DNA of 64,000 nt from an uncultured Candidatus Binatia bacterium (lineage in GTDB: Bacteria > Desulfobacterota > Binatia > Bin18), in assembly GCA_965203745.1 (NCBI GenBank), contig CBDBDK010000001.1, positions 1,955,328 through 2,019,327 of the forward strand. The letters are read 5' to 3'. Below the pieces are notes generated by a model. That model made no database searches and had not been told where the DNA came from. It saw only the letters and a list, made by a program, of their open reading frames with translations. The translations under genes were made by a program, and so were the position numbers. This document shows, piece by piece, positions 11,560 through 63,274 of this stretch (its first letter is position 1; every line of letters starts with the position of its first letter).

Positions 11560-11567
11560 GAGGTTGC

Positions 11568-16813: not shown

Positions 16814-16848
16814 GCAACGGGCGTCAGCTCTGGCTCTACACACGTGCT

Positions 16849-42737: not shown

Positions 42738-43679
42738 TTATGCTTTCCTACTCCTCTTCAGATGCTTTCGGGATCGCTGCCCCTTGGCCAAGTTCACCTC
42801 AGCGACTTCATTCGGACCAGCGGTCCACGTCCGATGATGTCGCCAGACGAGGGGGTCATGGCCGGGAATGAGGCGCTCGAGTTCGCGGCTCAAGGTCTTA
42901 CGAATATGCTCATAGGTAAAGAGTTGGTTAAACGGATTGCCCTGATTATAGCCGGGCGGCCACATCTTCTCGATATTTGAGTACCAATACACCGCATCAC
43001 CGGCGATGGCAAAAAGACCGTTGCGGGTTTGGACTTCAAACCACTGCGTGCCAAAGGTATGGGAATCCTTGGCCAAGTGAGCGGTAATGCCCGGCAAGAC
43101 TTCAACATCCCCCTCAATCAACGTGGCCCTGTCCTGACTGATCGCTATTGCCACGTTATGAATATCCTGCGGGTCAAGCGAGGACAGAATCCAGCTTCTC
43201 TCTCCCCCACCAAAATCTTTTGGCAAGGACAGGGTACGCAGCCAGCCCATGTACTCGTCCAGTTGAATATACAGGTGCGCGTTTGGAAAGGCTGAGAAAT
43301 TGCCAATATGATCAAAATGCAAATGCGTCACCAGAAGAGTATCCACATCTGTTGGGGTGAGTCCGATTTTTGCCAGTACGGTTGAGGGGTCTTCCCACCC
43401 AAAGAAGCGATAGCGCGACAGCCAGTCTTGGTTGCCGAACCCGGCATCAACCAGCACCACGTGTTTTTTCTGACCTTGCGCCCCCCCGACGAGCACGGTG
43501 TAGAGCATGGGAATCTGGATCGTGCCCTGGTTGCTCATGAGTCCTGAGCCACCAAAGAAGTCGTACGGCATGTCAGCCTGGCAATAGGCCAAGGTCCAGA
43601 TGGAATAATCCGTTGGCGGCTTTTCGCCTACCAGGTTTTGCGATTGAACCGCCCGCTTTCTTTTTTTGACCGCTGGCAT
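42738..43679 (-). CDS. MBL-fold metallo-hydrolase (lactonase-like)
   Basis: THLHFDHIGN (HxHxDH) and downstream His/Asp ligands. 313 aa. Confidence 0.7.
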   Translation of the reverse strand: MPAVKKRKRAVQSQNLVGEKPPTDYSIWTLAYCQADMPYDFFGGSGLMSNQGTIQIPMLYTVLVGGAQGQKKHVVLVDAGFGNQDWLSRYRFFGWEDPSTVLAKIGLTPTDVDTLLVTHLHFDHIGNFSAFPNAHLYIQLDEYMGWLRTLSLPKDFGGGERSWILSSLDPQDIHNVAIAISQDRATLIEGDVEVLPGITAHLAKDSHTFGTQWFEVQTRNGLFAIAGDAVYWYSNIEKMWPPGYNQGNPFNQLFTYEHIRKTLSRELERLIPGHDPLVWRHHRTWTAGPNEVAEVNLAKGQRSRKHLKRSRKA

Positions 43680-43984
43680 GGAGGCTTCCCTTCCTTGACT
43701 GCTCCATACTCATCATGAAGTGTCCCAGCGGACAAGCTACGATCAAAACTTCTGGTGTCCCACCGAACGACAGGTGAAAGCGTGGGGTTGCCGTGATAAT
43801 TTTTCTGAGGGCTCGTCTTGTCGCTCGTCGGATATTTCGATAGTGTCATCAAAACTTTGCGGCTTCGCGCACGAAGAGCGACGGTAAGCGGAACGTTCCT
43901 GAGATGCAAAATAAGGACAGGGGGCGCTCTATCGGCTCACCGCATGGATGCAATGCGCGGAAGTCAGACCAGAAAGGAGTTGGT

Positions 43985-45106
43985 ATGCGCATTGGTATTC
44001 AGATGGTGCTTCAAAACCATAAGGAGCACGATGATCGGGTGATGTACAAGAACGAGACCCGCCTCGCGATTGAATCCGAGGAGATGGGGTTCGATATCGT
44101 GTGGCCGGTGGAGCATCACTTTTTTGACTACTCCATTTGCCCGGATAATATGCAGTATCTGAGCTATATCGCCGCCAGGACGGAAAAACTGGAATTGGCC
44201 ACTGGCGCTATCATCGTGCCGTGGAATAACCCCATGCGGGCGGTGGAAAAAATGGTCCTGCTCGACCACCTGTCGGACGGACGGGCGGTCCTCGGCCTCG
44301 GACGCGGCCTTGCCCGGCGTGAGTATGCGGGTTTTGGCGTGGACATGGGCGAAGCGCGTGACCGTTTTAACGAGGCCGCAGAAATTATCGTGAAGGGCCT
44401 GGAAGACGGCTTTGTTGAAGCCGACACCAAATACTACAAGCAGCATCGCATCGAGGTGCGCCCCCGACCGATTAGGAGCTTCAAAGATAGACGCTACATG
44501 GTGTGCATGTCGCCCGAGTCTTTTGAGGTCGCGGCTCGGCTCGGTCTGGGAGCCATGATGTTCTCTCAGATGACCTGGGATAAAGTTGCCGACGGCATCA
44601 ACAATTACCGTGAGCTGTATCGCCAGTATAATAACGGCGAAGAGGCGCCTCCGGTGAACTGCGCCGACTTTGTCGTCTGCTCGCACGATGCCAAGAAGGC
44701 GGAAGCAATCGCGCGGGAAAAAATCGTGGGCTACTACTTCAGCGTGATGGAGCACTACGAGATGCTGGGCGACCACTTCGCGCAGACGGGCAAATCCTAC
44801 GCCCACTATGCCGAGGCGGCCAAGATGATGCGGGAAGCCGGCAATGAAGCCATTCTGGAAGACTTTCTGGCTGCCAATCTATGGGGCACGCCAGACATGA
44901 TCATCGAGAAGCTGGAAACACGGCGTGGCCAGATCGGTGAATTTGAGGTCAACGGCTGCTTCAGCTTCCAGAGCCAGCCGTTTGATCAGGTCGAAGACAG
45001 CATGCGTCTCTTTGCCAAAGAAGTTGGTCCGATGATGCATGCCTGGACTCCGCAAGCCAAAGCACCGGTCGATGTGGCCGCTGCTGAAGCTCGCGTTGGC
45101 AAGTAA
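43985..45106 (+). CDS. LLM-class (luciferase-like) flavin-dependent oxidoreductase
   Basis: MRIGIQM...TIM-barrel LLM signature (FDIVWPVEHHF, LGLGRG). AAAGGAG RBS sits 6 nt before the ATG at 43985. Confidence 0.75.
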   Translation: MRIGIQMVLQNHKEHDDRVMYKNETRLAIESEEMGFDIVWPVEHHFFDYSICPDNMQYLSYIAARTEKLELATGAIIVPWNNPMRAVEKMVLLDHLSDGRAVLGLGRGLARREYAGFGVDMGEARDRFNEAAEIIVKGLEDGFVEADTKYYKQHRIEVRPRPIRSFKDRRYMVCMSPESFEVAARLGLGAMMFSQMTWDKVADGINNYRELYRQYNNGEEAPPVNCADFVVCSHDAKKAEAIAREKIVGYYFSVMEHYEMLGDHFAQTGKSYAHYAEAAKMMREAGNEAILEDFLAANLWGTPDMIIEKLETRRGQIGEFEVNGCFSFQSQPFDQVEDSMRLFAKEVGPMMHAWTPQAKAPVDVAAAEARVGK

Positions 45107-45121
45107 ATCTTCTCTTTAACC

Positions 45122-45150
45122 AGACGGGCGGAGTCATCCTCCGTCCGTCT
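45122..45150. terminator. strong hairpin between convergent LLM and YdjM-like genes (candidate bidirectional terminator)
   Basis: agacgggcggag-tcatc-ctccgtccgtct forms a 12-bp stem with one G.U pair. No clear U-tract on either side. Confidence 0.35.
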
Positions 45151-45171
45151 GTCGTCTACAATCCTACGCCC

Positions 45172-45690
45172 TCATTCCGGTCCATTCCCACGTAGCGAGC
45201 GACTGACTGGCGTCATGAGGCAGAGCAGCCCATGGATGCCGAGCCACAGCCGGTCAAGAGTACCACCCGGCAGCCAGCGGACATTGCCATAGTCGATGAT
45301 GTCCCACCACAGATGACTTGCTAGGCCGACTCCATACCCGGCCACCAGGATATGCAGGAAGCGCGCCTGTCGTCTGACCAGCAGGACCAGGACAAAGAAA
45401 GATATACTGCTGTGGAAGAGGGGGTTGCGATGGCCGCCGATACCCAGCAGCCGGATATCCAGGTCAGGGAAGACCGTTCCCAGGTAGCACGGCACAAGGG
45501 CTGCGAGAGAAACGCCGACTGCCTGACCGATATTGGCCCGGTTGCCGCCGTTTGCCGCCATATAGCCCAGGAGCAGCAGGATACCGACCAGGCTGTGCTC
45601 AAGCCCGGTCAGCGCTCTTTTGCCCGAAGAAGCCGAGTATACCCCAGTTGGGCACCAAGGCCATGCCGAAGGCCACGGCAAGCGTGACAA
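45172..45690 (-). CDS. membrane-bound metal-dependent hydrolase, YdjM-like (PF04307)
   Basis: Aligns with E. coli YdjM from VFPDLDIRLLGIGGHRNPLFHS to LASHLWWDIIDYGNVRWLPG. Confidence 0.55.
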   Translation of the reverse strand: MSRLPWPSAWPWCPTGVYSASSGKRALTGLEHSLVGILLLLGYMAANGGNRANIGQAVGVSLAALVPCYLGTVFPDLDIRLLGIGGHRNPLFHSSISFFVLVLLVRRQARFLHILVAGYGVGLASHLWWDIIDYGNVRWLPGGTLDRLWLGIHGLLCLMTPVSRSLRGNGPE

Positions 45691-45758
45691 GGACCCTGAT
45701 GACCTGCTTCCCTTGAGCCATCTCCATCTCGTCTATGGAGCTATTGCCCCAATCTCGA

Positions 45759-46379
45759 TTAGCCATTTTTTCGTTGTATCCAATACTGTGGAGGTTCGGC
45801 CGAGAGGAGGCTATGGCCGGTGAGGCGACACCAGGCGGGAATATCCGCTGGCGCGCCGGGGTCTTGGGCAATGAGGACCAGGACTTGGCCTGGGTGCATG
45901 GACTTGAGACGTAGGCGGAGTTTCAAAACCAGCTCGCCGCAGGCCATGTCTCCAGCATCCCAGGTGCCGTTTGGGGCGGCTGGGATGTCCGCTGCCGGCG
46001 TTGCCATGTGAGTCTGGGGTTGTGAGGGAGTGGCGGGCCAGATACAGGCGGGCTGTTCAATGGATTGGTCTTCTTGTTGGCTTGCCCAGTTCCAACCGCT
46101 GCGGTAGCAGGTCTGGCGGCGGATATAACTGTAAGCGTCTCTCAAGAAATCTGCTGGTGAACGTCCTAAGCCACTGGCAAGGCAGGCGGTACAGTGCGGG
46201 GTTGTTTTGAATCCGGTTACGACGCTCAGGACGTATTCGTGGAAGCAAATAGACCGTGAGCAGCGAAAGCAGGTTGGATTGCTGAGCTGGGTGAGTTCTT
46301 TGAGGATTTCGACCGTGCGCTGTTCCTCGGCGTCCAGGTCGTCATCGATAGCAGGGAAGGGGGGCTGGTCGGGTTTCAT
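45759..46379 (-). CDS. hypothetical protein with C-terminal TusA-like domain (CPxP replaced by CGEL) and Cys-rich N-terminal region
   Basis: The C-terminal 70 aa align with E. coli TusA (DAGDMACGELVL...VLVLIAQDPGAPADIPAWCRLTGHSLL...YWIQRKNG). The N-terminus carries CxxC....H....HCxxC. Confidence 0.5.
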   Translation of the reverse strand: MKPDQPPFPAIDDDLDAEEQRTVEILKELTQLSNPTCFRCSRSICFHEYVLSVVTGFKTTPHCTACLASGLGRSPADFLRDAYSYIRRQTCYRSGWNWASQQEDQSIEQPACIWPATPSQPQTHMATPAADIPAAPNGTWDAGDMACGELVLKLRLRLKSMHPGQVLVLIAQDPGAPADIPAWCRLTGHSLLSAEPPQYWIQRKNG

Positions 46380-46870
46380 TGTGTCTGGTCGGCTTTCCTG
46401 AATTCGTTCTCTAAAAAGTCGGAAAAACTCGCGCTAAACCGTCGTGGTGTCGAGGCAAACCACTCCCGAATTCCCTTTTGGGTAAAATATTGGCGTAAGG
46501 TTTCACACCAGCGCTCCCACTGTCCCTGGTCTAAGGCTCCCTGGGTGTATTGATAGAAGAAGTTTTCACCAGCGGAGAAGGAATAATACATGATCAGATC
46601 AAAACGGTGTCGCTCGTCTTCGGCCAGCGCGGTGTAGTCTTCCGATCCAACGCGTAAAATCCGAGAAAGATCAGGATTCTCGGCCACCAGAGCAATATAG
46701 TCGAGTCGGGTGGTTGTCAGGGCGTGATGGGTGGAGTTGCGGACCGCGCGCGTATTCTGCCGTACCTGGATGGCGAGATAGACCAGCGAGACGATGACGC
46801 CAACCGCACTTACGATCTCGGCAACTGCCCCAATAGCTTTGAAATCCATACTCCTGCGCATACTGACCAT
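46376..46870 (-). CDS. hypothetical membrane-anchored protein
   Basis: 164 aa with one N-terminal TM helix (AIGAVAEIVSAVGVIVSLVYLAI). Its stop overlaps the start of the TusA-like ORF (ATGA), suggesting translational coupling. No family recognised. Confidence 0.35.
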   Translation of the reverse strand: MVSMRRSMDFKAIGAVAEIVSAVGVIVSLVYLAIQVRQNTRAVRNSTHHALTTTRLDYIALVAENPDLSRILRVGSEDYTALAEDERHRFDLIMYYSFSAGENFFYQYTQGALDQGQWERWCETLRQYFTQKGIREWFASTPRRFSASFSDFLENEFRKADQTQ

Positions 46871-47021
46871 TTTTGACAGCTTGGTGCAAGTTCGTTATGG
46901 CAGCAACGATCTTGACCCTGGCACCCAGAGGGCTTATCGTGCCCGCGAAACAGTACGTGCGCTGATATGAAGAGTAAACGTATCCTCCAATAGACAGGTA
47001 GATGCTGGACACGTTCACTCT

Positions 47022-48251
47022 TTGCGGAACGATATGGGAACACAGGACAGTCAACCTGGTGGGCCACTGGCCGGTATCCGGGTCATTGAATGTGGCGTTC
47101 TTCTGGCCGGCCCGTTTTGTGCCCGTCTGCTCGCCGACTTCGGGGCTGAAGTCATTAAAGTCGAAGCCCCCCACAAGGGCGACCCCATGCGCACGGTCGG
47201 CCAGTCTCTGGTGGACGGCAAAAGTCTGTGGTGGCCGAGCGTGGCCCGCAATAAGAAATGTATTTCCCTCAACCTGCGTGACCCCGAAGGACAGGAGCTG
47301 CTGCGCCGCCTGGTCTGTCAATCCGATGTTCTGGTGGAAAATTTTCGTCCCGGAGTGTTTGAAGAATGGGGCCTCGGCTATGAGGTCCTGCGTGAGTTGA
47401 ACCCGGGTCTCGTCTTTGCCCGCGTCTCCGGGTACGGCCAAACCGGCCCGTATCGGGAAAAACCCGGCTTTGCCGCGGTAGCCGAGGCCTTTGGCGGGCT
47501 GCGCCATCTGGTCGGCTTTCCGGACCGGCCTCCCTGTCGGGTGGGTATCAGCATTGGTGACTCCCTGGCTGGTATGTTTGCCGCGCTGGGCACGCTGATG
47601 GCGCTCTACAATCGTGATGTCAACGGCGGAACCGGCCAGGTGATCGATACGGCTTTATATGAAGCCGTGTTTGCCGTGCTGGAGGCGACCCTGACGGAAT
47701 ACGAAAAAACCGGCTACCAGCGGACACGGACCGGGACCCTCCTGCCTGGGTTTGCGCCGTCCAACCTCTATCCGTGTAAAAACGAGCAGTGGATTGTGAT
47801 TGCCGCCAACACCGATGGTCTGTTCAGGCGGCTGTGTACCCTCATGGGTCGAGAAGAATTGCTCACTGACCCCCGTTTCGAGAACCAGGTCGTGCGGGCT
47901 GAAAACCGTGAGGCCATCGATGCTATTGTCTCAGACTGGACGGCGACCTATGAGCTGTCAGCATTGCTGCCGCGGGTCGAGGGCGCAACCATTCCCGCCG
48001 GTCCGGTCTACAGCATAGCAGATATCGTTCACGACCCGCATTTTGCGGCGCGCGACATGCTGGTTTCCCTGCACGACCGGGTCCTGGGTGAACTCAAAAT
48101 GCCCGGCATCGTCCCCAAACTCAGCGAGACTCCCGGCGAGGCCCGTTGGTCGGGACCGGCAATCGGAGAACATAACCAAGAGGTCTATTCTGGTTTATTA
48201 CATTTTAGCTCAGATGAACTGGCCGCCCTGACCGCACGCGGCGTCATTTGA
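47022..48251 (+). CDS. family III CoA-transferase (CaiB/BaiF), paralog 1
   Basis: GIRVIECGVLLAGPFCARLLADFGAEVIKVE N-terminal signature. ~400 aa. Confidence 0.8.
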   Translation: MRNDMGTQDSQPGGPLAGIRVIECGVLLAGPFCARLLADFGAEVIKVEAPHKGDPMRTVGQSLVDGKSLWWPSVARNKKCISLNLRDPEGQELLRRLVCQSDVLVENFRPGVFEEWGLGYEVLRELNPGLVFARVSGYGQTGPYREKPGFAAVAEAFGGLRHLVGFPDRPPCRVGISIGDSLAGMFAALGTLMALYNRDVNGGTGQVIDTALYEAVFAVLEATLTEYEKTGYQRTRTGTLLPGFAPSNLYPCKNEQWIVIAANTDGLFRRLCTLMGREELLTDPRFENQVVRAENREAIDAIVSDWTATYELSALLPRVEGATIPAGPVYSIADIVHDPHFAARDMLVSLHDRVLGELKMPGIVPKLSETPGEARWSGPAIGEHNQEVYSGLLHFSSDELAALTARGVI

Positions 48252-48282
48252 ACAATCAAAGCCTCAACAAAGGAGGACTGTT

Positions 48283-49488
48283 ATGGCTGAACAACTCCTG
48301 TCAGGGATTAACGTCGTTGAGTGCGGCAATCTGGTTTCTGCCGCTTATACCGGCAAGCTGCTCGCCGACTTTGGTGCGGATGTGGTCAAAGTCGAAGAGT
48401 TGGGCGGTGACGTCTCCCGACAACGCGGCCCCTTTCCCGGCGATACCCCGCATGCCGAGAAGAGCGGTCTGTTCCTATACCTGAACGCCAATAAACAAGG
48501 CGTCACGCTGAATCTGCACGAACCCAAAGGGCAGGCGGTCTTGCAGAATTTATGTGCCCGGGCCGATATTCTGCTGCATAATTACAGCCCGCGCGAGATG
48601 CCCGAGGTCGGCCTGGATTACGAAAAACTGCGTCAGATCAATCCGGGCCTGATTATGACCTCGATTTCTTACTTTGGTCAGACCGGCCCGCACCGTGACT
48701 ATCACGGCTATGACCTGACGGCGAGTAACGCCGGAGGATGGGCGTTCATCAGCCCGGGTGCCTCCGATTACCCGGACCTGCCACCCCTCAAAGCGTTTGG
48801 CCATCAGACCGACTTTCAGGGCGGGGTGCACGCTGGCGTCGCAACGCTTGGCGCATATTACCATAAATGCCTGACGGGCGAAGGCCAGCACCTCGATGTC
48901 TCCGTCCAAGAGTGTATTGCTGCCATCCTGGAAATGAATTTTATGCACTACACCTATAGCGGTCTGGAAACATCGCGGCTGGGACGACGGTCCATCTATC
49001 CCTGGTGCATGCTCGACTGTAAAGACGGAAAACTCTTTGTGGTTTGTGTGGAAGAAGACCAGTGGCAGCGCTTTGTCGAGCTGATGGGCAACCCTGAATG
49101 GGCGACCCTGGAGATTTTTGCCGACCGCGTCGTCCGAGGGCAGAACTATGACGCCCTGATGCCCTTTCTTCAAGAGTTCGCCGCAGAGTGGACGGTTGCC
49201 GACCTGTATAAAGTCGGTCAAGAGCGCCGTATCTGTATGGCCCCGGTAAACACCATGTCAGACTTGATGGCCTCGGAGCATCTCAAGGCGCGTGAATTCT
49301 TTACGGAAATCAGTCATCAGGTCGCGGGCACGCTGCAATATCCGGGTGCCCCTTTTAAGGTGGAGGAGGTTGGCTATGCCGTGCGTCGTCCGGCGCCGCA
49401 GCTTGGCGAGCATAATAATGAGGTCTACGCCCGGATTGGATTCTCTCAGGCCGAGATCGATGAGCTGAAGCAGGGCGGGATTGTTTAA
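48283..49488 (+). CDS. family III CoA-transferase (CaiB/BaiF), paralog 2
   Basis: GINVVECGNLVSAAYTGKLLADFGADVVKVE. 401 aa. Confidence 0.8.
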   Translation: MAEQLLSGINVVECGNLVSAAYTGKLLADFGADVVKVEELGGDVSRQRGPFPGDTPHAEKSGLFLYLNANKQGVTLNLHEPKGQAVLQNLCARADILLHNYSPREMPEVGLDYEKLRQINPGLIMTSISYFGQTGPHRDYHGYDLTASNAGGWAFISPGASDYPDLPPLKAFGHQTDFQGGVHAGVATLGAYYHKCLTGEGQHLDVSVQECIAAILEMNFMHYTYSGLETSRLGRRSIYPWCMLDCKDGKLFVVCVEEDQWQRFVELMGNPEWATLEIFADRVVRGQNYDALMPFLQEFAAEWTVADLYKVGQERRICMAPVNTMSDLMASEHLKAREFFTEISHQVAGTLQYPGAPFKVEEVGYAVRRPAPQLGEHNNEVYARIGFSQAEIDELKQGGIV

Positions 49489-49514
49489 GGGAGCCGACCG
49501 CAAAGGAGAACGTC

Positions 49515-50732
49515 ATGGCACGACGACCGTTAGAAGGCATTCGCGTAACCGATTTTACCTGGGCCTGGGCAGGACCGTACTGTACGCTCCAAATGGCGCA
49601 TATGGGCGCGGAAGTGATTCGGATTGAGAGTGAAAAGCGTCCGTGCGTCACCCGTTTGATCCCGCCGTTTGCGGACAACGAACCTGGGCCGAACCGGGCC
49701 GGCTATTTCAACCAATACAGCCAGGGTAAGAAAAGCCTCCAGCTTGATCTGGCCCGGCCCGAGGCGTCTGAGATTGTCAAAAAACTCATTGCCAAGAGCG
49801 ATATTGTCGTGCAGAACTTCTCAACCGGGGCGATTAACCGCATGGGTTTTGGCTATGACACGCTCAAGGAACTCAAACCCGATATCATTATGATTTCAAT
49901 CTGCGGCTACGGGCAAACCGGTCCCGAACGCCACTATATGGGCTATGGGCCGGCTTCCGTTCCGTTGGCAGGAATCTCATCCTTGACCGGTTATCCAGGG
50001 GTTGGGCCGGCGGAGATCGGTATGTCGTATGGCGACCCGAACGCCGGCATCTTTGGTTCGTTTGCCGCCATGGCCGCGCTGGCCTATCGCCACCGCACCG
50101 GCAAGGGGATTCACGTTGACCTGGCATTATGGGAAGCCCTGCTCGTCCTGATGCCCGAAGGCATCATGGATTATATGATGAATCAGACCCAGCCTGAGCG
50201 CGACGGCAACCGGGATCGCTGGATGGCACCCCACGGCTGTTTTAAGTGTAAGGGCGACGCCGAGAAGTGGGTGACGATCGTGTGCGGTAGCGACGCGGAA
50301 TGGCAGGCCCTGTGTCAGGCCATCGGTCAACCGGAACTGGCCACGGATAAACGTTTTACCGATGCGGCAGCTCGGAAGGCGAACGAGGATGCGCTCGAAG
50401 AAATTATCACAGCCTGGACGAGCGAACGCGACCGCTGGGAGGTGACGGAGGTGCTGCAGAAAGCCGGCGTGGCTGCTTACCCGTCTCAGAGCAATAAAGA
50501 CTTGGCAACCAATCCGCATCTCGAAGAACGTGGCTATCTCGTGCAAAAAGAACATCCCGAATTCGGCAGACGCATCCACGCCGGCATCCCGTGGCAGATG
50601 AGCGGCTCTCCGTGCGAAGTGCAGGCCGCCGCCCCACAGCGTGGGCAACATACGGACTATGTGTTGCAGGAGCTTCTTGGCTATTCCGGCGACGAGGTGC
50701 AAAAGCTGCGAGACGAGCAGGTGTTGACCTAA
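49515..50732 (+). CDS. family III CoA-transferase (CaiB/BaiF), paralog 3
   Basis: GIRVTDFTWAWAGPYCTLQMAHMGAEVIRIE. 405 aa. Confidence 0.8.
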   Translation: MARRPLEGIRVTDFTWAWAGPYCTLQMAHMGAEVIRIESEKRPCVTRLIPPFADNEPGPNRAGYFNQYSQGKKSLQLDLARPEASEIVKKLIAKSDIVVQNFSTGAINRMGFGYDTLKELKPDIIMISICGYGQTGPERHYMGYGPASVPLAGISSLTGYPGVGPAEIGMSYGDPNAGIFGSFAAMAALAYRHRTGKGIHVDLALWEALLVLMPEGIMDYMMNQTQPERDGNRDRWMAPHGCFKCKGDAEKWVTIVCGSDAEWQALCQAIGQPELATDKRFTDAAARKANEDALEEIITAWTSERDRWEVTEVLQKAGVAAYPSQSNKDLATNPHLEERGYLVQKEHPEFGRRIHAGIPWQMSGSPCEVQAAAPQRGQHTDYVLQELLGYSGDEVQKLRDEQVLT

Positions 50733-50941
50733 CTCCGAGAGGGGAGGGTAGCCTGATTGCTGAACTGTGGGTGTAGGGCGGGTTGCGCTCGGGCCGACCT
50801 TCGCTCCATGAGAGCATGAGAAGAGTACCACCTTGCATCGGTGGTGGCTTGTGGCTAGGATCGCGGCAGTTCATATAACTGAACCTTCATTCAGCCATTC
50901 GGCCAAACTACTCTATAATTATTGAGAGAAGGGGACTCAGT

Positions 50942-52186
50942 ATGGCAGGCGCGTCACGTCAGGGTATGTTAGCTGGCTATAAAGTGCTGGACTTTACGCA
51001 GATTGTCGCCGGACCGACGACGACGCGCCTCCTGGCTGAAATGGGGGCTGAGGTCATTAAGGTTGAACAGGCTCCGAAAGGAGACCCGGCCCGCCTCAAC
51101 GGGATTCTGAAAAAAGGCCGGAGCGGCTATTTCATTCAGCACAATGTCTGCAAACAAAGCCTGTGTGTGAATCTCAAAACGGAGGAAGGGCGGGACATCG
51201 TACGCGGGCTCATTCCGCATATGGATGTGGTGGTCGAGAACTATAGTCCGGGTGCGATCAAACGGCTCGGTTTTGCCTATGAAGAACTGCAAGAGCTGAA
51301 CCCGCGTATCATCATGTGCTCGATCTCGGCCCTTGGTCAGACCGGCCCGCTGTCCCATGTGCCCGGCTATGATTTCATCGCCCAAGCGTATTCCGGCTTT
51401 AATGAAGTCACTGGCGAACGCGGCCGGGCGCCGGCCATGCCCCAGGCTGCGATTGGCGATGTGAGTACAGGAGTACATGCCTTCGGCGCGATTGCGTGTG
51501 CGCTGTTGCACCGTGAGCGGACAGGCGAAGGCCAGTATATCGACGTGTCGCTGCTCGATGCCTACATCCATTCGCACGACTTTACGATCCAGTCGCATAG
51601 CGCCTCGGGTGGCAAATTCGTCCCGACACGGAGTGGCGCTCACCATATGGGGCTGGCCCCGTGCGGTATTTTCCAGGCAAAAGATGGGTTCGTCGTCATC
51701 GTGGGTGCCCTGGACCATCAGTGGCAGGGCGTGGCGCGAACCATTGGACATCCGGAATTTGTGGAAGACCCGCGCTTCCGTACCAATCGGGATCGGGTCC
51801 ATCATAAAAAAGAACTCATCCAGGCTATTGAGGCCTGGCTCGACACCATGCCGAATCGGGAAGAGGCGGTCGCGGCTCTGCACCGTGAACGCGTGCCGGC
51901 CGCACCGGTTTTGACCATTCCGGAAGTGGTCAACCACCCCCATTTGCTTGAGCGGGAAGCCATCCGGCCGATACAGGATAAGGTGTTGGGTGATTTTGTT
52001 CTGCCTGGGTTTCCATTCCGATTTTCGAGCTCAGCTAGAACCGATGCCCCGTTTGAAGCGCCGGATTTGGGCGAACATAATGAGTCTGTCCTCCGCAATT
52101 ATCTGGCCTATACCGCTGACCAACTGGAGCGGTTAGCGCAGGACGGCATCCTTGTCAGCCGCCCAACTCCTGTAGAATACGAGTAA
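50942..52186 (+). CDS. family III CoA-transferase (CaiB/BaiF), paralog 4
   Basis: GYKVLDFTQIVAGPTTTRLLAEMGAEVIKVE. 414 aa. Preceded by a 209-nt spacer with a TATAAT-like element. Confidence 0.8.
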   Translation: MAGASRQGMLAGYKVLDFTQIVAGPTTTRLLAEMGAEVIKVEQAPKGDPARLNGILKKGRSGYFIQHNVCKQSLCVNLKTEEGRDIVRGLIPHMDVVVENYSPGAIKRLGFAYEELQELNPRIIMCSISALGQTGPLSHVPGYDFIAQAYSGFNEVTGERGRAPAMPQAAIGDVSTGVHAFGAIACALLHRERTGEGQYIDVSLLDAYIHSHDFTIQSHSASGGKFVPTRSGAHHMGLAPCGIFQAKDGFVVIVGALDHQWQGVARTIGHPEFVEDPRFRTNRDRVHHKKELIQAIEAWLDTMPNREEAVAALHRERVPAAPVLTIPEVVNHPHLLEREAIRPIQDKVLGDFVLPGFPFRFSSSARTDAPFEAPDLGEHNESVLRNYLAYTADQLERLAQDGILVSRPTPVEYE

Positions 52187-52199
52187 GGAAAGATATTTC

Positions 52200-53828
52200 A
52201 TGCACGGTAAACGCGGGTTCCGACCTGTAGTCAGTAGCGTCTTGGGTGGACTGTTACTCCTGGCGGTCTCGGCCAATATTTCTCCCTGTTACGGCTATTT
52301 CATGGACAAGCAGGTTGATAAGATCGTGAATGCCTGGTCACGCTTCGATCGTTTTCTGTCCACCTTTGATCCGGCCGGCCGCTACGTCCGCCAGCCCGTT
52401 GAACGGCAGGTCCCGGCCCTGACGTTCCGGGGCTTTCTCCGCCAGTGGTCCGATATCCAACTCTCGGGCGACCGCCGCGTCGGTAATCGACAGAAAGATT
52501 TCCGTTTTTCCCAGATGCAGAATCTGTTGGAATTGGAACTCCACTACCAAGTCTCACCCAATATCGAAATCACCAATATCAATAACTTCGTGTACGACAG
52601 CGTGTACAACTGGCAGGATTCTGCCGGTCTGTTTGCCCCCCGGACGAGCGAAAGCTTCCGCGCCTATCATAACTTCGAGCGTATCGTGCGCGAGTTATAT
52701 ATCAGCTATCGCACCCATAACCTCGACGTAGTCCTGGGCAAGCAGCAAATCGCCTGGGGCAAAATGGACGGCCAGTTTATTGACGTCATCAACGGCATGG
52801 ATAGACGCGAGTCCGTCCAGCTTGAGGCGAGCGACTACGAGTGGCGCCGGCTGCCGGCCTGGATGGCAAACGTGACCTATTTCTTTGGGGCAAATTCTCT
52901 CAACTTCCTGTGGATTCCGAACTTTGAGCAGGACCGCAATCCGGTTCCCGGCTCGCCGTGGTACTCGCCTCTGATTCCGCCTAGGGATACGGACACGAAA
53001 GCGATCCTGGACGGCCGGCAAGACGCGACCGGGGATCAGTTCAGAGAGACGAAGCGGCCGTCTACGGGCGACTTCGGGGACCATCAATACGGCCTGCGGC
53101 TTGATGTGTCCATGGAACCCCTCACCTGGGGTCTCATCTATTATTACGCCTGGAATAAAAACCCAACGTCCTTCATTGTTGACCGCGATATTGATGCTGC
53201 CGGAGACCCCTATCTGATCTTTCAGCCGCGTTTTACCCGCTTGCACCATCTGGGTATCACCGCCGACTATGCTTCCGCCCTCTCGAACATGCCGCTTGTC
53301 GGCGAACTGCCGATTGTGCTGCGGGTTGAGGGTTTGTGGACCAAAGACGTTCCCTTCGCCGACTTTGACCATCAGGATCGCGCACGGGACGGATATCTCA
53401 ACTCTGGGATCATTCGGCGTGACACCTTGCGGGCCGCGATTGCGCTGGAGTTCGCCTTTCCCGGTAATACCTCCGCGATTATACAGCCTTCCCTGTTGTA
53501 TACCTTTGACTGGCGTCGCAATCTCGGCGGTGGCTTTGGCGGAGGAATCGGAGATGAAATGAGCCTCCTTCCGGTTATGTTTATTGGACGTCCGTTTCGC
53601 TTCACCCGTGACCGTTTGCGCTTGGAGTTGACCGTCGTTCCAGTGATCAGTCTGCCGCAGAAGAAGTGGCAGGGCATAAAAACGAAATTTGTTTCGAGCT
53701 ATCGCTTTTCCCAATTTGTTACCGGTCGCCTCATTTATACGGCGTTCAGTAGCGGTGACCGGACTGACCTGTACGGTCAATATAATAAATGGGACAATAT
53801 CGGCTGGGAACTGAGCTACGAGTTCTGA
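52200..53828 (+). CDS. putative outer-membrane protein, DUF1302-like (signal peptide, C-terminal aromatic residue)
   Basis: 542 aa, signal peptide, a beta-rich low-hydrophobicity body, and the C-terminus ...WELSYEF (terminal Phe, an OMP signature). The family assignment is from memory of DUF1302/DUF1329 pairing. Confidence 0.5.
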   Translation: MHGKRGFRPVVSSVLGGLLLLAVSANISPCYGYFMDKQVDKIVNAWSRFDRFLSTFDPAGRYVRQPVERQVPALTFRGFLRQWSDIQLSGDRRVGNRQKDFRFSQMQNLLELELHYQVSPNIEITNINNFVYDSVYNWQDSAGLFAPRTSESFRAYHNFERIVRELYISYRTHNLDVVLGKQQIAWGKMDGQFIDVINGMDRRESVQLEASDYEWRRLPAWMANVTYFFGANSLNFLWIPNFEQDRNPVPGSPWYSPLIPPRDTDTKAILDGRQDATGDQFRETKRPSTGDFGDHQYGLRLDVSMEPLTWGLIYYYAWNKNPTSFIVDRDIDAAGDPYLIFQPRFTRLHHLGITADYASALSNMPLVGELPIVLRVEGLWTKDVPFADFDHQDRARDGYLNSGIIRRDTLRAAIALEFAFPGNTSAIIQPSLLYTFDWRRNLGGGFGGGIGDEMSLLPVMFIGRPFRFTRDRLRLELTVVPVISLPQKKWQGIKTKFVSSYRFSQFVTGRLIYTAFSSGDRTDLYGQYNKWDNIGWELSYEF

Positions 53829-53834
53829 CCGATT

Positions 53835-55187
53835 ATGAACGGGCGCTTTTTTTTCCTGACGATCTGGGCCTTGCTGTCCAGTCTGGCGTTCCCGGTCGCC
53901 GGGGCTGCCGAGCAGAACGGCGGTCCGCGCAAGACCTGGAAGACAGTAGAAGAACTGTCCGAGGCGGAAAAATCGCGCATTGATTTCCGGGTCGATACTC
54001 CCCGAGATGCCACGCTTCCGTATCTCCCGGCAGAGGCCTATCCCTTTCAGCCGCCCTATACCGCGGAAGAGATGGGCTATCGGGCCATGGAATTCCCCCA
54101 CATCGCCCGCTGGTCGCACGCCATGGCCGATGTGTTCGGTGCCATTACCAGCAACGGCTTCCTCGATGAAGGCATCACGTTGGCCTATAGCCACTATATG
54201 CCGGACGAGTATGGGGTGGCCGGCCAGCTCAGCGTGAGGCCGGGGGACGCCTATTTTCGAATGGTCTTCTTCTATACCTATCCGCCCGAGAACCAGGGTC
54301 TTCAGGACCTGTGGATCTTGAGACGGACGGACCAGGAGGAAACGACCAAACTGGACAATTTCATCTACAGTCCAAACCTGCGCCGCGTGCGCCGCCAGCC
54401 TCAGCCCCGCCGGGACGCGCGCTTCCCCAATAATGTCCAGACCTTTGACGATGTGGTAGGCCGCGACGCCTGGGAATTCTCGTGGCGCCTGCTGGGCACG
54501 GATGTGCTGTACGAGACGGTGCGTTTTCCCACCACCCGCCCAACGGTCACCCTGGCCAAGCCCGACGGGAGTTTTTATACGGTCCCGTCGGACCAGATTA
54601 AAATGCTGGGCGACACCTATTCGCACTATACGGCGGACGGCGGCGTGGCCTGTTATGTGGTTGAGGCGACTCGGCGGGAAGACTGGCTGCCCCATTACCG
54701 TATGAGCCGGTTGATATACTGGTTCGATCAGCACGGCTTCTATCCGCTGCGTATCGAGCAGTACGACAATGATAATCAACTGCGGATGATTGAGGTCCGA
54801 AACGCCTCTCTGGCCAACCCGGCCCTGGAAGAACGCGGCTATGCCGGCTTATTCACGCTCTATTACGATCTCGCCCTCGACCTGATGAGCTATAGCGCCC
54901 ACGACGCCCACTGGGTGAAGGAGTGGGCTCCAGAAGACCGAGAGACGATGTTTGAGCCCGACTTCATGCGTCGCAGTTGGCTCAAGTATCCACTCAAATC
55001 CCAGTCCCTGGTGTATTCTCCGGAGAAATTCTTCCTCCGCCCACACCTGTATCCAGATAAGTTTCCGCAAGACCGAAACGTTACTATCCCCACAGAGCTA
55101 GCCCAGCGCTACCGTTTGCAAGAAGAAGCCGGACATCTCGTCTTCGACAGTTCCTCTCCGCTCATTGAGGTCAAGGCGCCAGAGTAA
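53835..55187 (+). CDS. DUF1329-like periplasmic/OM-associated protein, paralog 1
   Basis: 450 aa with a signal peptide. Strongly similar to the next ORF (RKTWKTVEELSEAEKSRIDFRVDTPRDATLPYLPAEAYPFQPPYTAEEMGYRAMEFPH). Confidence 0.5.
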   Translation: MNGRFFFLTIWALLSSLAFPVAGAAEQNGGPRKTWKTVEELSEAEKSRIDFRVDTPRDATLPYLPAEAYPFQPPYTAEEMGYRAMEFPHIARWSHAMADVFGAITSNGFLDEGITLAYSHYMPDEYGVAGQLSVRPGDAYFRMVFFYTYPPENQGLQDLWILRRTDQEETTKLDNFIYSPNLRRVRRQPQPRRDARFPNNVQTFDDVVGRDAWEFSWRLLGTDVLYETVRFPTTRPTVTLAKPDGSFYTVPSDQIKMLGDTYSHYTADGGVACYVVEATRREDWLPHYRMSRLIYWFDQHGFYPLRIEQYDNDNQLRMIEVRNASLANPALEERGYAGLFTLYYDLALDLMSYSAHDAHWVKEWAPEDRETMFEPDFMRRSWLKYPLKSQSLVYSPEKFFLRPHLYPDKFPQDRNVTIPTELAQRYRLQEEAGHLVFDSSSPLIEVKAPE

Positions 55188-55195
55188 GGACCTCT

Positions 55196-56542
55196 ATGGC
55201 TCTCCGCGCGCAACAGTTCTTGTGGCTCGTTGTTTTCTGCCTGCTGTCTTCCGGTAGCATAGGGGTCGCGATTGTGGCGGCAGACCAAAGCAGTCTGATC
55301 TCACGGAAAACCTGGAAAACGGTTGCCGAGCTCACGGCCGAAGAAAAGAATGCGCTGGACCTCCGTAGTGATACGCCGCGGGATGCAAACGTCCCCTATC
55401 TGCCGGCCGAGTCCTTTCCGTTTCAACTCCCTTATACGGCTGAAGAAATGGCACTGCGAGCCATGGAGTTCCCACACTCGCCATTCTGGGACTGTGTCCT
55501 GATCGATATGGCTTTCTCGGTGACGAACTCGGGATTTATGGATCAGCGTGTGACGCTTATTCCCATCCTGTATTTTCCCGAGAATGGGTTCGGAGAACAT
55601 CTGTATGCCGCCCAGCCCGGCCAGGAAATCTATCGCTGGCTCTCCCAAAGCGTCTCTCCACCCGAACGGTATGGGAATCAGACCTTATGGATAGGCTATC
55701 GGACGGATCAAACGTTCCGGACGAAAATAGACATGTTTGCCTATTCCCCATCGCTCCGGCGAATCCGTCGTCAGCCCCAACCGCGCCGGGAAGACCGCTT
55801 ACCCAATAGCGCGGCAACGTTCGATAATTTGATCGGACGGGACGCCTGGGAATTCTCGTGGCGCATTCTCGGGACGGATATTTTGTATCAGACGGTGCGT
55901 TTTCCCAAGACGCGCCAAACCGCCGTGCTGACCGACGAAAACGGGCGGTATGTTGAGGTTGCCGCCAAAGACCTCTCCCTCATGGGTAAAGAATATCCGC
56001 TCTATACCGCAGACGGTGGAGTCAAATGCTTTGTGCTTGAAGCCATACCAAAGGCCGAATGGCTACGTGACTACTACGCCCATAAGCTGATTTACTGGGT
56101 TGACCAATATGCATTCTTTCCCTTGCGGATGGAAGAATATGACCGACAGGGGCAGTTGAGTTTTGTGAATACCCGGATTGCGACCCTGGCCAATCCAGAA
56201 CTTCAGGAACATGGCTATGCGGTCCAGTTTGACCTGTGGTGGGACGTGTCTATTGATTTCCTGTCCGCTTCGATCCACGGTTTTGTCCCGCAAACTTGGT
56301 CAGAGGAAGACAAAAAGATCTTCTTCAGCTCTGGATTTATGCGCCGCGAATGGTTCCTGGTGCCGCCCAAGGGTTTGATGAGTCTCAACTCGCCGGACGA
56401 ATTCTATCTGCGACCTCCACTCGAAGAGGAAAAATTCCCGGCCTCGCGCTCTATCGATTTGCCACCTGAAGTGCGGGCCTTGATTGAGGCCCAGGAGCGC
56501 GAGGGCAAGCTGGTATTCGAGGAAGGGCGGGGAGACGGCTAA
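55196..56542 (+). CDS. DUF1329-like periplasmic/OM-associated protein, paralog 2
   Basis: 448 aa with a signal peptide. Co-linear paralog of the previous ORF (RKTWKTVAELTAEEKNALDLRSDTPRDANVPYLPAESFPFQLPYTAEEMALRAMEFPH). Confidence 0.5.
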   Translation: MALRAQQFLWLVVFCLLSSGSIGVAIVAADQSSLISRKTWKTVAELTAEEKNALDLRSDTPRDANVPYLPAESFPFQLPYTAEEMALRAMEFPHSPFWDCVLIDMAFSVTNSGFMDQRVTLIPILYFPENGFGEHLYAAQPGQEIYRWLSQSVSPPERYGNQTLWIGYRTDQTFRTKIDMFAYSPSLRRIRRQPQPRREDRLPNSAATFDNLIGRDAWEFSWRILGTDILYQTVRFPKTRQTAVLTDENGRYVEVAAKDLSLMGKEYPLYTADGGVKCFVLEAIPKAEWLRDYYAHKLIYWVDQYAFFPLRMEEYDRQGQLSFVNTRIATLANPELQEHGYAVQFDLWWDVSIDFLSASIHGFVPQTWSEEDKKIFFSSGFMRREWFLVPPKGLMSLNSPDEFYLRPPLEEEKFPASRSIDLPPEVRALIEAQEREGKLVFEEGRGDG

Positions 56543-56563
56543 TGCCGACCTCCGCCGTGCGCC

Positions 56564-57679
56564 TTACTGCGTCTCGTGCGTGGCCTGCCAGGCGCGGCCC
56601 ATCGAGTCCGCGGCCAGAATGGCGTCGGCAACCATGTCGGGCTGCACGTCAAACGGCTCGTTATGGATGGTTTCGCCTTCGGCGGTCGCCCGCGTTGCTA
56701 CTTGTTCAAGCACGTCCTCAGGGAGCTCGGTGAGCCCGATCTCGGTCAGGGTGATAGGCAGGCCGACCGCGGATGAAAACTCCAGCACCGGATCGATAAC
56801 CGAGCGTGGCTGCCCTTCGAGCACCAACTGGGCCATCAGGCCGTAGGCGACTTTTTCCCCGTGATAATACGGGTGGGTGAGCGGGGCTGCGGTGAGGCCA
56901 TTGTGAATGGCATGGGCTGCGGCAAGACCCGAGGACTCGAAGCCTAAACCCGACAGCAGGGTGTTGGCTTCGACCACCCGCTCCAGGGCAGGATTGACAA
57001 CATTTCGTTCCACGGCCCGTTTGGCATCCGGGCCGTCTTCAACCAGGATATTGCAGCACAGCTCTGCCAGCTTTTCGGCGCTGCGCGTTGAGGCTCCACC
57101 ACGCATATTCTGGACGTGGCCGGCAACACAGGTTTTAGCCTCGAACCACGTAGCCAGCGCATCTCCCATCCCTGCCACAAGCAGTCTGGCCGGAGCTTGG
57201 GCGACGACATAGGTGTCCACAACAACCAAATCAGGGTTTTTTCGATAAAAGCGATATTCCTGGAACACTCCCTCGGGGGTATAGATCACCGACAGCGCGC
57301 TGCACGGTGCGTCGCTTGAAGCAATGCTTGGACAGTTAACGACGGGAAGGTCGAGGTCGTCCGCCGCTGCACGGGCCGCATCCAATACCTTACCGCCGCC
57401 CGCTCCAATAATAACCTGAGCCTTATTCTCCCGTGCTGTTTCTTTGATACGTTGGATTTCGGGATAGGAGCATTCCCCTCCGAACTGGTGGACGACGTGG
57501 GTGATGCCGGCATCGTTCAAATGTTTCTGCCAGACTTCTGAGAGCAGCCGAATGGCACTTTTCCCGGCAACGATACAGGCAGGCCCCTGTAGACCGATGC
57601 GCTGCATTTCCGTTCCTAGGGCTGCGGTGGCGTGTTTCCCCTGTACATAGTGGCTTGGGGCTGAAAAAACTGAGAGCAT
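56564..57679 (-). CDS. iron-containing alcohol dehydrogenase family (glycerol dehydrogenase GldA-like)
   Basis: GGGKVLD (GGGS-type) NAD motif and the metal-ligand region of group III ADH/GldA. 371 aa. Confidence 0.8.
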   Translation of the reverse strand: MLSVFSAPSHYVQGKHATAALGTEMQRIGLQGPACIVAGKSAIRLLSEVWQKHLNDAGITHVVHQFGGECSYPEIQRIKETARENKAQVIIGAGGGKVLDAARAAADDLDLPVVNCPSIASSDAPCSALSVIYTPEGVFQEYRFYRKNPDLVVVDTYVVAQAPARLLVAGMGDALATWFEAKTCVAGHVQNMRGGASTRSAEKLAELCCNILVEDGPDAKRAVERNVVNPALERVVEANTLLSGLGFESSGLAAAHAIHNGLTAAPLTHPYYHGEKVAYGLMAQLVLEGQPRSVIDPVLEFSSAVGLPITLTEIGLTELPEDVLEQVATRATAEGETIHNEPFDVQPDMVADAILAADSMGRAWQATHETQ

Positions 57680-57839
57680 ACATCCCTCCTTACCAAGTGC
57701 TGTTCCCGCAGATAGAGCAGGGTGAGAGCTTTTGCAGTATAAACTGAGACGTGTTGACGCGGCAAGCAGGAGAGGGCCAGTGGGACAAGCGGAAGACGCT
57801 ACGGTTCGGCAGAGAACGCTGCTTCTCTCAATCTCATCC

Positions 57840-57862
57840 GATATATCAGGTTCGGATATATC
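57840..57862. repeat. two copies of the palindrome GATATATC 15 bp apart, upstream of an extended -10 (TGCTATAAT 57882-57890)
   Basis: GATATATC at 57840-57847 and 57855-57862. TATAAT at 57885-57890 lies 7 nt before the ATG at 57898. Confidence 0.5.
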
Positions 57863-57897
57863 TTCCCGCTTTTGGTTCGAGTGCTATAATTGCCGCC

Positions 57898-59847: not shown

Positions 59848-59974
59848 GATTGAATAGCAGCCCGCACTCGCTTCAGTGTGGACTCCCGATCTCCGTCCTC
59901 AATGGTCGGAAGCCGCGAGAGAAAGAGGGGGCAGGGGTCAGGGTGGAGAGACCCTAGCTTGCGTGCACTATACT

Positions 59975-60826: not shown

Positions 60827-60916
60827 GTCGAGTTCCCACCCTGGAGTTGTCCCCACTCCCTCATCCTGCTATCTCAGGGCCTTTGGTCAATACTGAAATT
60901 CTGTAAGAACTGACCG

Positions 60917-61489: not shown

Positions 61490-61539
61490 AGAGAGAGAGT
61501 ATACAGTAGCATCGTTATTACTATCGAGGAGGGATAAGC

Positions 61540-63255: not shown

Positions 63256-63274
63256 GACGAATATGAGGTGCGGT

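Follow-up and report, generated by a model that had tools for sequence, protein, structure and literature searches.

Proteins of the DUF1302 and DUF1329 families make up a widespread outer-membrane system that has neither a solved structure nor a defined substrate, and the two have been predicted to form a transport complex of a beta-barrel and its periplasmic partner. In Pseudomonas putida (PP_0765/PP_0766), Shewanella, Kangiella, and P. stutzeri, a DUF1302 barrel gene adjoins that of a DUF1329 LolA-like partner, and clusters of the P. putida type are genetically linked to the use of hydrophobic esters and lie near fatty-acid genes. P. putida mutants in the pair are unable to grow on Tween 20 and butyl stearate, and the pair recurs in p-cresol, phenanthrene, and steroid clusters. 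Here we describe a gene cluster in a 64,000-nucleotide stretch of contig CBDBDK010000001.1 from an uncultured Candidatus Binatia bacterium (the whole stretch is referred to as the window), in which such a pair is encoded next to four family III coenzyme A (CoA)-transferases, named CT1 to CT4 in gene order. An exact-sequence search with the window DUF1302 protein gave no record; the placement of the host in Candidatus Binatia is matched by its nearest DUF1302 orthologs, which show 98% identity and are encoded on complete chromosomes 4-6 Mb in size. The searched literature contains no paper that describes this cluster, or that ties Binatia/Binatota to DUF1302/DUF1329 or to these transferases.

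The combination of a channel with CoA activation has precedents. Long-chain fatty-acid uptake by FadL/FadD is a vectorial thioesterification, in which an outer-membrane channel and cytoplasmic CoA activation suffice without a dedicated inner-membrane pump. In the Acinetobacter dca cluster, the gene of the porin DcaP is clustered with that of DcaIJ, a CoA-transferase activating dicarboxylic acids. One report describes DcaP-family porins as required in carboxylic-acid catabolism (PMC12338516). Among family III CoA-transferases, the succinyl-CoA:(R)-benzylsuccinate CoA-transferase BbsEF (structure 9fn0) is made of two distinct subunits encoded side by side, E then F, while human SUGCT and Escherichia coli YfdE are homodimers specific for dicarboxylates.

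The window cluster differs from each of these. Unlike the Pseudomonas systems, its DUF pair lies in a predicted transcription unit with a family III CoA-transferase, an association unreported for those systems, and its DUF1329 gene is duplicated; no BNR-repeat, COG1033 resistance-nodulation-division (RND), or LuxR partner gene was found among the scanned window open reading frames (ORFs), although such genes could lie elsewhere in the genome. Its DUF1302 is a divergent subtype (43 bits to PF06980), 50-56% identical to the farthest loci retrieved, which come from metagenome-assembled genomes (MAGs) of Gammaproteobacteria such as Porticoccaceae, the Pseudomonas proteins not being part of this comparison. 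The logic would be the same as that of FadL/FadD, but the proteins are unrelated, CoA transfer without ATP would replace the acyl-CoA synthetase, and the LolA-like carrier is extra. Compared with the dca cluster, DcaP belongs to another porin family and DcaIJ to family I, and dca includes beta-oxidation enzymes whereas the window block does not. Compared with BbsEF, to which CT2 and CT3 are roughly 30-40% identical as judged by eye from alignments rather than computed, the window has two further transferases and envelope genes and lacks other bbs genes and benzylsuccinate synthase, and the host has an O2-dependent monooxygenase. All component families, and the principle of joining a channel to CoA activation, were known already; what is new is that CT4, DUF1302, and DUF1329 form a fixed triad with an operator-like repeat, that four transferases stand in an array, and that CT2 and CT3 have fused relatives.

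A conserved CoA-transferase-DUF1302-DUF1329 triad

Genes in the window were called from an ORF listing together with Pfam and NCBIfam profile searches. The features at the center of the cluster are as follows.

46912-46940, plus strand, sigma-70-like promoter of CT1-CT2-CT3 (TTGACC, 17 nt, TATCGT), from a consensus scan and conservation
47034-48251, plus strand, CT1, family III CoA-transferase, 405 aa from ATG (PF02515, 431 bits)
48283-49488, plus strand, CT2, family III CoA-transferase (PF02515, 323 bits)
49515-50732, plus strand, CT3, family III CoA-transferase, BbsF-like (PF02515, 360 bits)
50833-50861, plus strand, promoter-like element of CT4-DUF1302-DUF1329 (TTGCAT, 17 nt, TAGGAT), its columns invariant in the T1 alignment (T1 is defined below)
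50879-50894, no strand, operator-like inverted repeat CTGAA-N6-TTCAG, invariant in T1
50942-52186, plus strand, CT4, family III CoA-transferase (PF02515, 383 bits)
52200-53828, plus strand, DUF1302-like outer-membrane beta-barrel ending in SYEF (PF06980, 43.2 bits)
53835-55187, plus strand, DUF1329/LolA-like secreted protein a, with an N-terminal signal peptide (PF07044, 42 bits; PF17131, 39 bits)
55196-56542, plus strand, DUF1329/LolA-like secreted protein b, with an N-terminal signal peptide (PF17131, 41 bits; PF07044, 36 bits)

The genes fall into two tightly packed groups, CT1-CT2-CT3 with gaps of 31 and 26 bp and CT4-DUF1302-DUF1329a-DUF1329b with gaps of 13, 6, and 8 bp, which are separated by 209 bp between CT3 and CT4. 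From this spacing and from the conservation described below, we conclude that the two groups are likely separate transcription units, of which CT4-DUF1302-DUF1329 is the older and is conserved more widely. Upstream lies a gene for a luciferase-like flavin oxidoreductase (LLM), and downstream lie a GldA-type dehydrogenase gene and the operon of a copper-containing membrane monooxygenase (CuMMO), all listed in the last section.

Conservation was surveyed with one genome per species in 80 species-level genomes, and the window proteins were mapped by tblastn onto 85 loci. The loci were sorted by identity to the window DUF1302 into tiers T1 (at least 78%, n=22 species-level genomes), T2 (64-75%, n=14), T3 (~60%, n=16), and T4 (50-56%, n=28). 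The triad CT4-DUF1302-DUF1329 forms an ancient core, present in 43/43 of the Binatia loci that have a CT4 match and whose DUF1302 identity is 60% or more (22/22 in T1, 14/14 in T2, and 7/16 in T3), and throughout these loci, which share the DUF1302 subtype of the window, CT4 sits directly upstream of DUF1302 at a distance of 13 bp. The remaining T3 loci carry a different DUF subtype, and in eight other Binatia loci, whose DUF1302 is of another subtype, no CoA-transferase gene lies nearby, which argues that the adjacency of CT4 is not a matter of background or of the abundance of its family.

In T1, the order LLM-TusA-CT1-4-DUF1302-DUF1329(x1-2)-GldA-esterase-hypothetical-amoCAxB-hypothetical-multicopper oxidase is essentially intact: CT4 is present in all 22 genomes, CT2, CT3, DUF1329, and GldA in 21 each, CT1 and AmoA in 20 each, the esterase in 19, and LLM and the TusA protein in 18 each (TusA in none of the T2-T4 loci), and the second DUF1329 copy is missing from some species. 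All 14 T2 loci have the triad and one has GldA; upstream of CT4 they carry either genes for an OmpA-like protein, a histidine kinase, and a sigma-54 response regulator, or genes for an HMGL-like protein, a zinc-dependent alcohol dehydrogenase (Zn-ADH), and an amidohydrolase. In seven T3 loci (L040, L041, L042, L044, L046, L047, and L086), the arrangement is [sigma-54 regulator]-CT1-CT2-CT3-[secreted alpha/beta-hydrolase]-CT4-DUF1302-DUF1329x2, with a Baeyer-Villiger monooxygenase (BVMO) gene on the opposite strand and neither GldA nor CuMMO. Their CT1, CT2, and CT3 are 74-84% identical to those of the window (CT1 75%) and their CT4 63-66%, compared with only 27-34% between the paralogs within the window; each transferase of the extended cluster is thus orthologous between two distant Binatia groups at 63-84% identity. 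T4 consists of Gammaproteobacteria, many of them Porticoccaceae, in which the DUF pair stands alone among genes for LLM, BVMO, short-chain dehydrogenase/reductase (SDR), enoyl-CoA hydratase, AMP-ligase, and major facilitator superfamily proteins, except in L064, L078, and L082, where a family III CoA-transferase lies beside the pair. Across the distant loci, recurring neighbors are alpha/beta-hydrolase lipoproteins, BVMO, LLM, SDR, enoyl-CoA hydratase, acyl-CoA dehydrogenase, and AMP-ligase.

Every gene named in the original prediction was recovered where it had been placed, and its orthologs are syntenic rather than scattered, with the order kept in the 22 T1 genomes and partly in more distant ones, so the arrangement is not due to chance. 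The prediction had also treated the stretch from LLM to GldA as one unit of ~14 kb. The comparison instead resolves it into the core triad, the extension CT1-CT2-CT3, and a clade-specific shell, since the window LLM and GldA, like the CuMMO, occur together with it only in the one clade of 22 species; nor is the block one operon, because LLM and CT1 are kept apart by three minus-strand genes and GldA is convergent with the CT/DUF genes. The term island, taken in its mobile sense, does not apply either: the GC content of the block (0.55-0.58) equals that of the rest of the window, it is flanked by housekeeping genes, among them LepA, LepB, and SucCD, and it is present in all 22 T1 species. We accordingly rejected a horizontally acquired island, there being no atypical composition, no mobility genes at the borders, and no patchy presence, and the sole insertion being a helicase gene. 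The best explanation is a vertically inherited chromosomal gene cluster with two adjacent transcription units at its core.

Transferases, control regions, and envelope proteins

All four transferases match PF02515 over its full length (profile positions 1-366 of 366, 323-431 bits) and share 27-34% pairwise identity, so that the predicted row of four different family III enzymes is borne out, and judging from this divergence they appear to be ancient paralogs. The catalytic Asp is kept in all four in a four-way alignment (D176 in CT1) and aligns with that of 9fn0 chain B (9fn0_B); we take this column to be the equivalent of Frc Asp169. None of the four reaches a cut-off of the NCBIfam equivalogs compared (Frc, YfdE, CaiB, succinate-glutarate, succinyl-CoA:mesaconate, and Mct), the best scores being 215-288 bits against cut-offs of 413-750. 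They thus fall outside these well-characterized subfamilies, and by sequence they do not appear to be known enzymes.

The nearest solved structures are 4ed9 (239 bits) and YfdE 4hl6 (232 bits) for CT1, chain A of the benzylsuccinate CoA-transferase (9fn0_A) for CT2 (180 bits, and 125 bits to chain B), 9fn0_B for CT3 (261 bits over the full length with the Asp aligned, and 100 bits to chain A), and human SUGCT 9br6 for CT4 (236 bits). CT4 and CT1 hence resemble dicarboxylate-specific enzymes and keep their Asp. With scores so far under the equivalog cut-offs, the specificity of SUGCT or YfdE cannot be transferred to them; by analogy, the likeness of the transferases to enzymes for dicarboxylates and substituted succinates hints at dicarboxylic or branched acids.

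CT2 and CT3 stand in the order of bbsE and bbsF, and CT3 homologs carry the JGI label 'BbsF subunit'. In another lineage (L096), a CT2 ortholog (56% identity) lies directly before a CT3 ortholog (62%), and orthologs of the two are fused in one reading frame via a short linker in L098 and in ~10 protein clusters of 592-707 aa. Because of these fusions, CT2 and CT3 probably form a heteromer, and CT1 is a separate family III enzyme. A catalytically dead, BbsE-like CT2 was rejected, as its Asp is retained where chain A lacks one; for the same reason, we describe the pair as BbsEF-like in its working and not as a member of that family. Neither the bbs beta-oxidation genes nor benzylsuccinate synthase were found in the window or in T1-T3 loci. 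Fused CT2-like/CT3-like proteins from other metagenomic lineages include P0329, P0331, P0335, P0338, P0351, and P0354. The L098 fusion (9683-12097) has in-frame stops in its N-terminal part that resemble long-read indel or assembly errors.

The ~115 nt that immediately precede CT4 show 92-97% identity throughout T1, including in loci whose gap otherwise holds insertions. The inverted repeat at 50879-50894 is the sole exact copy of CTGAA-N6-TTCAG in the window; four T3 loci have GACTGAA-N6-TTCAGTC ~60 nt upstream of CT4, and L042 and L044 have one-mismatch variants. The T3 loci, and the T2 loci in variant form, also carry CTTGC[AG], ~17 nt, and then TAnnAT, so that the promoter-like element and the repeat are common to Binatia clades in which CT4 is only ~65% identical. 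The arms of the repeat are conserved and its spacer is variable, which gives it an operator-like look, and the conserved stretch before CT4 is probably the binding site of a regulator. The motif CTTGACCC...TATCGT/TATGTT is likewise kept upstream of CT1 in T1 and T3 loci. Non-coding positions 50828-50941 are more conserved than expected, as is the sequence upstream of CT4 in L040, L041, L044, L046, and L047.

For promoters in the block, only phylogenetic footprinting was informative. Since T2 and T3 loci have a sigma-54 response regulator upstream, sigma-54 promoters were searched for and rejected for the window, TGGCAC-N5-TTGCW occurring below chance (19 found against 30 expected); a candidate site at 46919 overlaps the conserved sigma-70-like promoter of CT1, and no GG-N10-GC site was found before CT4. 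An Rfam search of the block gave no match at E up to 1, and hence no known riboswitch.

The gap between CT3 and CT4 (50733-50827 in the window; 8105-8530 in L001, 7826-8333 in L005, ~7820 in L022, and also in L041 and L042) is an insertion hot spot, which in relatives holds an RDD membrane protein gene, a ParE/antitoxin pair, a sigma-54 regulator fragment, a two-component cassette, or a secreted alpha/beta-hydrolase gene. No remnant of the RDD protein is present in the window gap, which is simply without the insertions seen in relatives.

The DUF1302 protein matches PF06980 with 43.2 bits (gathering score 23.2) over part of its length (residues 108-388 of 542), and this family is listed, as a precomputed match, on nearly all of its homologs. 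It has a signal peptide and a C-terminal Phe (...SYEF), and its AlphaFold2 model (pLDDT 72) is a large barrel of ~18-20 strands, with Foldseek matches to MOMP, OccK8, AlgE, and OccAB3 (E ~1e-10 to 1e-13, TMt 0.50-0.56). Based on the model, which fits published predictions for the family, the protein is identified as a putative outer-membrane beta-barrel, as the C-terminal Phe had suggested from the start. The two DUF1329 proteins, also anticipated, are paralogs with 48% identity that start 6 and 8 bp after the preceding gene; their signal peptides were judged by eye. In Gammaproteobacteria (L060, L061, L073, L074, L082, and L088), genes for YtkA-like and DUF5667 proteins often follow DUF1329, a four-gene module that is absent from the window.

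Proposed uptake with CoA activation and competing explanations

Given the literature on the DUF pair, the obligatory linkage of CT4, and the regulatory sequence shared between clades, uptake followed by trapping is the best reading of the cluster. From gene content and conservation, we consider it an even chance that the cluster takes up a hydrophobic carboxylic acid over the outer membrane and then traps it as a CoA thioester. CT4 would be coupled to the barrel and the two secreted LolA-like proteins, which would pass the poorly soluble acid over the outer membrane and the periplasm. Candidates for this acid are a dicarboxylate, a substituted succinate, or an acid that envelope alpha/beta-hydrolases free from an ester; it would cross the inner membrane without a dedicated transporter encoded in the block, and in the cytoplasm ATP-independent CoA transfer from succinyl-CoA or acetyl-CoA would give the thioester. 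In the first unit, CT2 and CT3 would form a heteromeric family III CoA-transferase of the BbsEF architectural type next to a separate CT1. Several transferases could serve different acids or successive intermediates, with CT1 and CT2/CT3 widening the range or acting later. The inward direction of transport, the class of substrate, and the CoA donor are those that we infer as most consistent with the neighborhood. That DUF1302/DUF1329 accompany genes for hydrophobic compounds, as the original prediction noted, agrees with the clusters in which the literature finds the pair.

Several points weigh against this proposal. The block has no inner-membrane transporter and no beta-oxidation genes. The DUF families are without a biochemically defined function, and 27/30 gammaproteobacterial loci have the DUF pair without any CoA-transferase. 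In Pseudomonas and Shewanella, the DUF1302/DUF1329 proteins show co-fitness with an RND exporter-type protein, and the role first proposed for them was export of a cell-wall component, so that transport could also run outward. The analogy with BbsE is incomplete, CT2 keeping an Asp where the aligned residue of 9fn0_A is Tyr. The -35 of CT4 (TTGCAT) is too weak for a consensus scan, and a promoter/terminator consensus scan of 43600-61600 did not rise above shuffles, so that the promoters are called on the strength of their conservation.

Uptake and trapping can be narrowed to a Baeyer-Villiger/ester route, which we regard as unlikely. Here LLM or BVMO would convert a ketone to an ester or lactone, envelope hydrolases (an alpha/beta lipoprotein or a metallo-beta-lactamase-fold enzyme) would open it, GldA would oxidize the resulting alcohol or diol, and the four transferases would CoA-activate the (di)carboxylic acids, with DUF1302/DUF1329 importing the ester or the acid. 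In keeping with this route, LLM lies beside the block in T1, a different LLM of 398 aa directly follows DUF1329 in the T3 loci L040, L046, and L086, and a flavin-containing monooxygenase of the BVMO type lies within 10 kb in 5 T3 and 6 T4 loci. Non-homologous alpha/beta-hydrolase lipoproteins are encoded between CT3 and CT4 within the T3 operon and also next to the block in T1, the window LLM is nearest to LuxA, an aldehyde-to-acid monooxygenase, and the P. putida phenotype concerns esters. The LLMs of different tiers, however, are non-orthologous (24-25% identity), and the family is probably expanded in Binatia (published as 'multiple ladA homologues'), which makes chance adjacency plausible; LLM is absent beside the block in L007 and L037, GldA is essentially confined to T1 (21/22, against 1/14 in T2), and the flavin reductase and aldehyde dehydrogenase are not in the block.

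The original prediction raised the possibility that the block handles products of the neighboring CuMMO, so that both would form one pathway from hydrocarbon through alcohol and acid to the CoA ester; we consider this quite unlikely. The two are indeed near each other, but not immediately adjoining, since 3.9 kb with genes for a helicase, a lipoprotein esterase, and a small membrane protein lie between them. The adjacency of the block to amoCAxB is kept in 20/22 T1 species-level genomes, GldA and the esterase lie between the two, and the CuMMO belongs to the 'putative pmoA Binatales' group, which falls among hydrocarbon monooxygenases and itself has no established substrate or downstream route. 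Against this, T3 has the CT1-4/DUF operon without a CuMMO within 10 kb and T2 has the core without one, and L022, from the tier part with 78-80% identity, keeps LLM-CT1-4-DUF-GldA with transposase-like sequence downstream and no CuMMO. A convergent gene and, in this strain, the helicase insertion separate the units, and small gaseous substrates would not need an outer-membrane uptake system.

Relatives of AmoA outside T1 (74-79% identical) come from three lineages with other neighbors and never carry the CT/DUF block. In these nearest non-Binatia loci (L090/L091, L092/L093, and L094/L095), the CuMMO is accompanied by Zn-ADH in 3/3 lineages, by Amidohydro_2 and FeS_assembly_P (DUF59) in two, by a MimR-type sigma-54 regulator in one, and by a glucose-methanol-choline oxidoreductase in one. 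The set of Zn-ADH, Amidohydro_2, DUF59, and MimR matches the accessory genes of actinobacterial propane/acetone monooxygenase clusters, a hint that the substrates of this CuMMO clade may be short-chain alkanes or ketones. With adjacency confined to T1 and other genes in between, a shared pathway could only be a clade-specific addition; the link between block and CuMMO is positional only, and a functional link is not supported.

Very improbable is a role of DUF1302/DUF1329 in envelope biogenesis or export (of a cell-wall lipid or outer-membrane vesicles) that is unrelated to the transferases, the gene order being an accident kept by linkage: BNR/RND co-fitness and pleiotropic phenotypes led to the export proposal, the proteins are present in Delftia nanopods, and most gammaproteobacterial loci lack a CoA-transferase, but the window has no BNR or RND gene, CT4 precedes DUF1302 by 13 bp in every Binatia locus of this subtype, the promoter-like and operator-like region is kept across clades, and the three exceptional T4 loci independently pair a family III CoA-transferase with the DUF pair.

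Returning to uptake and trapping, the tie of this DUF1302/DUF1329 subtype to a CoA-transferase with conserved regulatory sequence suggests the hypothesis that the pair takes up an acid that is later CoA-activated. A bolder reading, which we consider unlikely, is that the triad is a dedicated import-and-trap device in which a CoA-transferase replaces an acyl-CoA synthetase of the FadL/FadD type, and that in the CuMMO clade it could feed hydrophobic (di)carboxylic acids into metabolism via CT1 and CT2/CT3; the sources of these acids might be oxidized hydrocarbons, esters, or plant polyesters. In that case, a substrate class would for the first time be defined for DUF1302/DUF1329, and the orphan Binatales CuMMO would acquire a downstream route. 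The four transferases are a set open to expression and screening, and the CT2-CT3 fusions suggest that two-subunit family III transferases have a further, new lineage beyond anaerobic aromatic degradation. Binatia are an abundant class of uncultured soil bacteria, and for them the comparison tells the ancient part of the cluster apart from mere neighbors of the CuMMO, which guards against over-reading.

Neighboring genes and minor observations

The other features of the block and its surroundings are the following.

43985-45106, plus strand, LLM, luciferase-like flavin oxidoreductase, 373 aa (PF00296, 190 bits)
45172-45690, minus strand, YdjM/DUF5942-like membrane protein (weak Pfam matches), only in some T1 loci
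45759-46379, minus strand, protein with a Cys-rich N-terminus and a C-terminal TusA domain (PF01206, 46.6 bits), divergent from CT1
46376-46870, minus strand, hypothetical protein, 164 aa, with an N-terminal hydrophobic helix and without a Pfam or NCBIfam match, only in six T1 loci
56564-57679, minus strand, GldA-type glycerol/diol dehydrogenase (NF006941, 489 bits against a cut-off of 336)
57751-59847, plus strand, NERD and UvrD-like helicase (Pfam), strain-variable insertion
59975-60826, plus strand, alpha/beta-hydrolase lipoprotein (esterase) with lipobox LWAAGC and serine motif GHSDGG (weak AXE1 and Abhydrolase_6 matches)
60917-61489, plus strand, 190-aa protein with a signal peptide and a C-terminal transmembrane helix, without a Pfam match
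61540-62388, plus strand, amoC of the CuMMO operon (PF04896 and PF02461 are the Pfam families found in the operon)
62452-63255, plus strand, amoA of the CuMMO operon
63263-63616, plus strand, small ORF between amoA and amoB
63609 to past the window end (64000), plus strand, N-terminus of amoB

The luciferase-like flavin protein of the original prediction is confirmed by its PF00296 match. The longest ORF begins at 43904, whereas the form annotated in relatives is that of 373 aa. The best solved relative is the LuxA-like 8cbb (129 bits), and the best NCBIfam match (NF052254, 132 bits) is among those for which no cut-off was reached. A LadA-type long-chain alkane monooxygenase was considered and is not indicated, the best matches being LuxA-like with no LadA-branch model listed among them. 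We also rejected LLM as a conserved pathway member, the LLMs beside the operon in distant relatives being non-orthologous.

The predicted iron-type alcohol dehydrogenase belongs to that superfamily and is more exactly a GldA-type enzyme, whose score does not reach the equivalog cut-offs set for glycolaldehyde reductase and propanediol dehydrogenase. Where relatives lack the helicase, the GldA gene and the esterase-hypothetical-amoCAxB unit are arranged divergently and may have a common control region. An enzyme of this type could act on acetol or diols from a monooxygenase, yet GldA stays with the CT/DUF genes in the CuMMO-free L022. LLM, GldA, the esterase, and the CuMMO are neighbors fixed in one clade and not demonstrably part of the same pathway.

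Among the 85 loci, the NERD/UvrD helicase occurs only in the window and in L037 (71% identity), and it is a recent insertion of a possible defense or repair gene outside the system. The TusA protein (206 aa) is conserved solely in the clade that bears the CuMMO, and in its TusA-like domain Cys-Gly takes the place of the usual Cys-Pro motif. The CuMMO operon has the order CAxB, followed in relatives by a multicopper oxidase gene. Two distant paralogs (~27-36% identical) of the 190-aa protein bracket amoCAxB ahead of this oxidase (e.g., 16612-17184 and 20604-21176 in L001); they may be PmoD-like accessory proteins, though they have no Pfam match. Finally, MAG records titled 'uncultured Enterobacteriaceae' or 'Klebsiella pneumoniae' (L021, L030, L034, L038, and L055) hold CT4-DUF1302-DUF1329 loci of the Binatia type, and their taxonomic labels are probably wrong.

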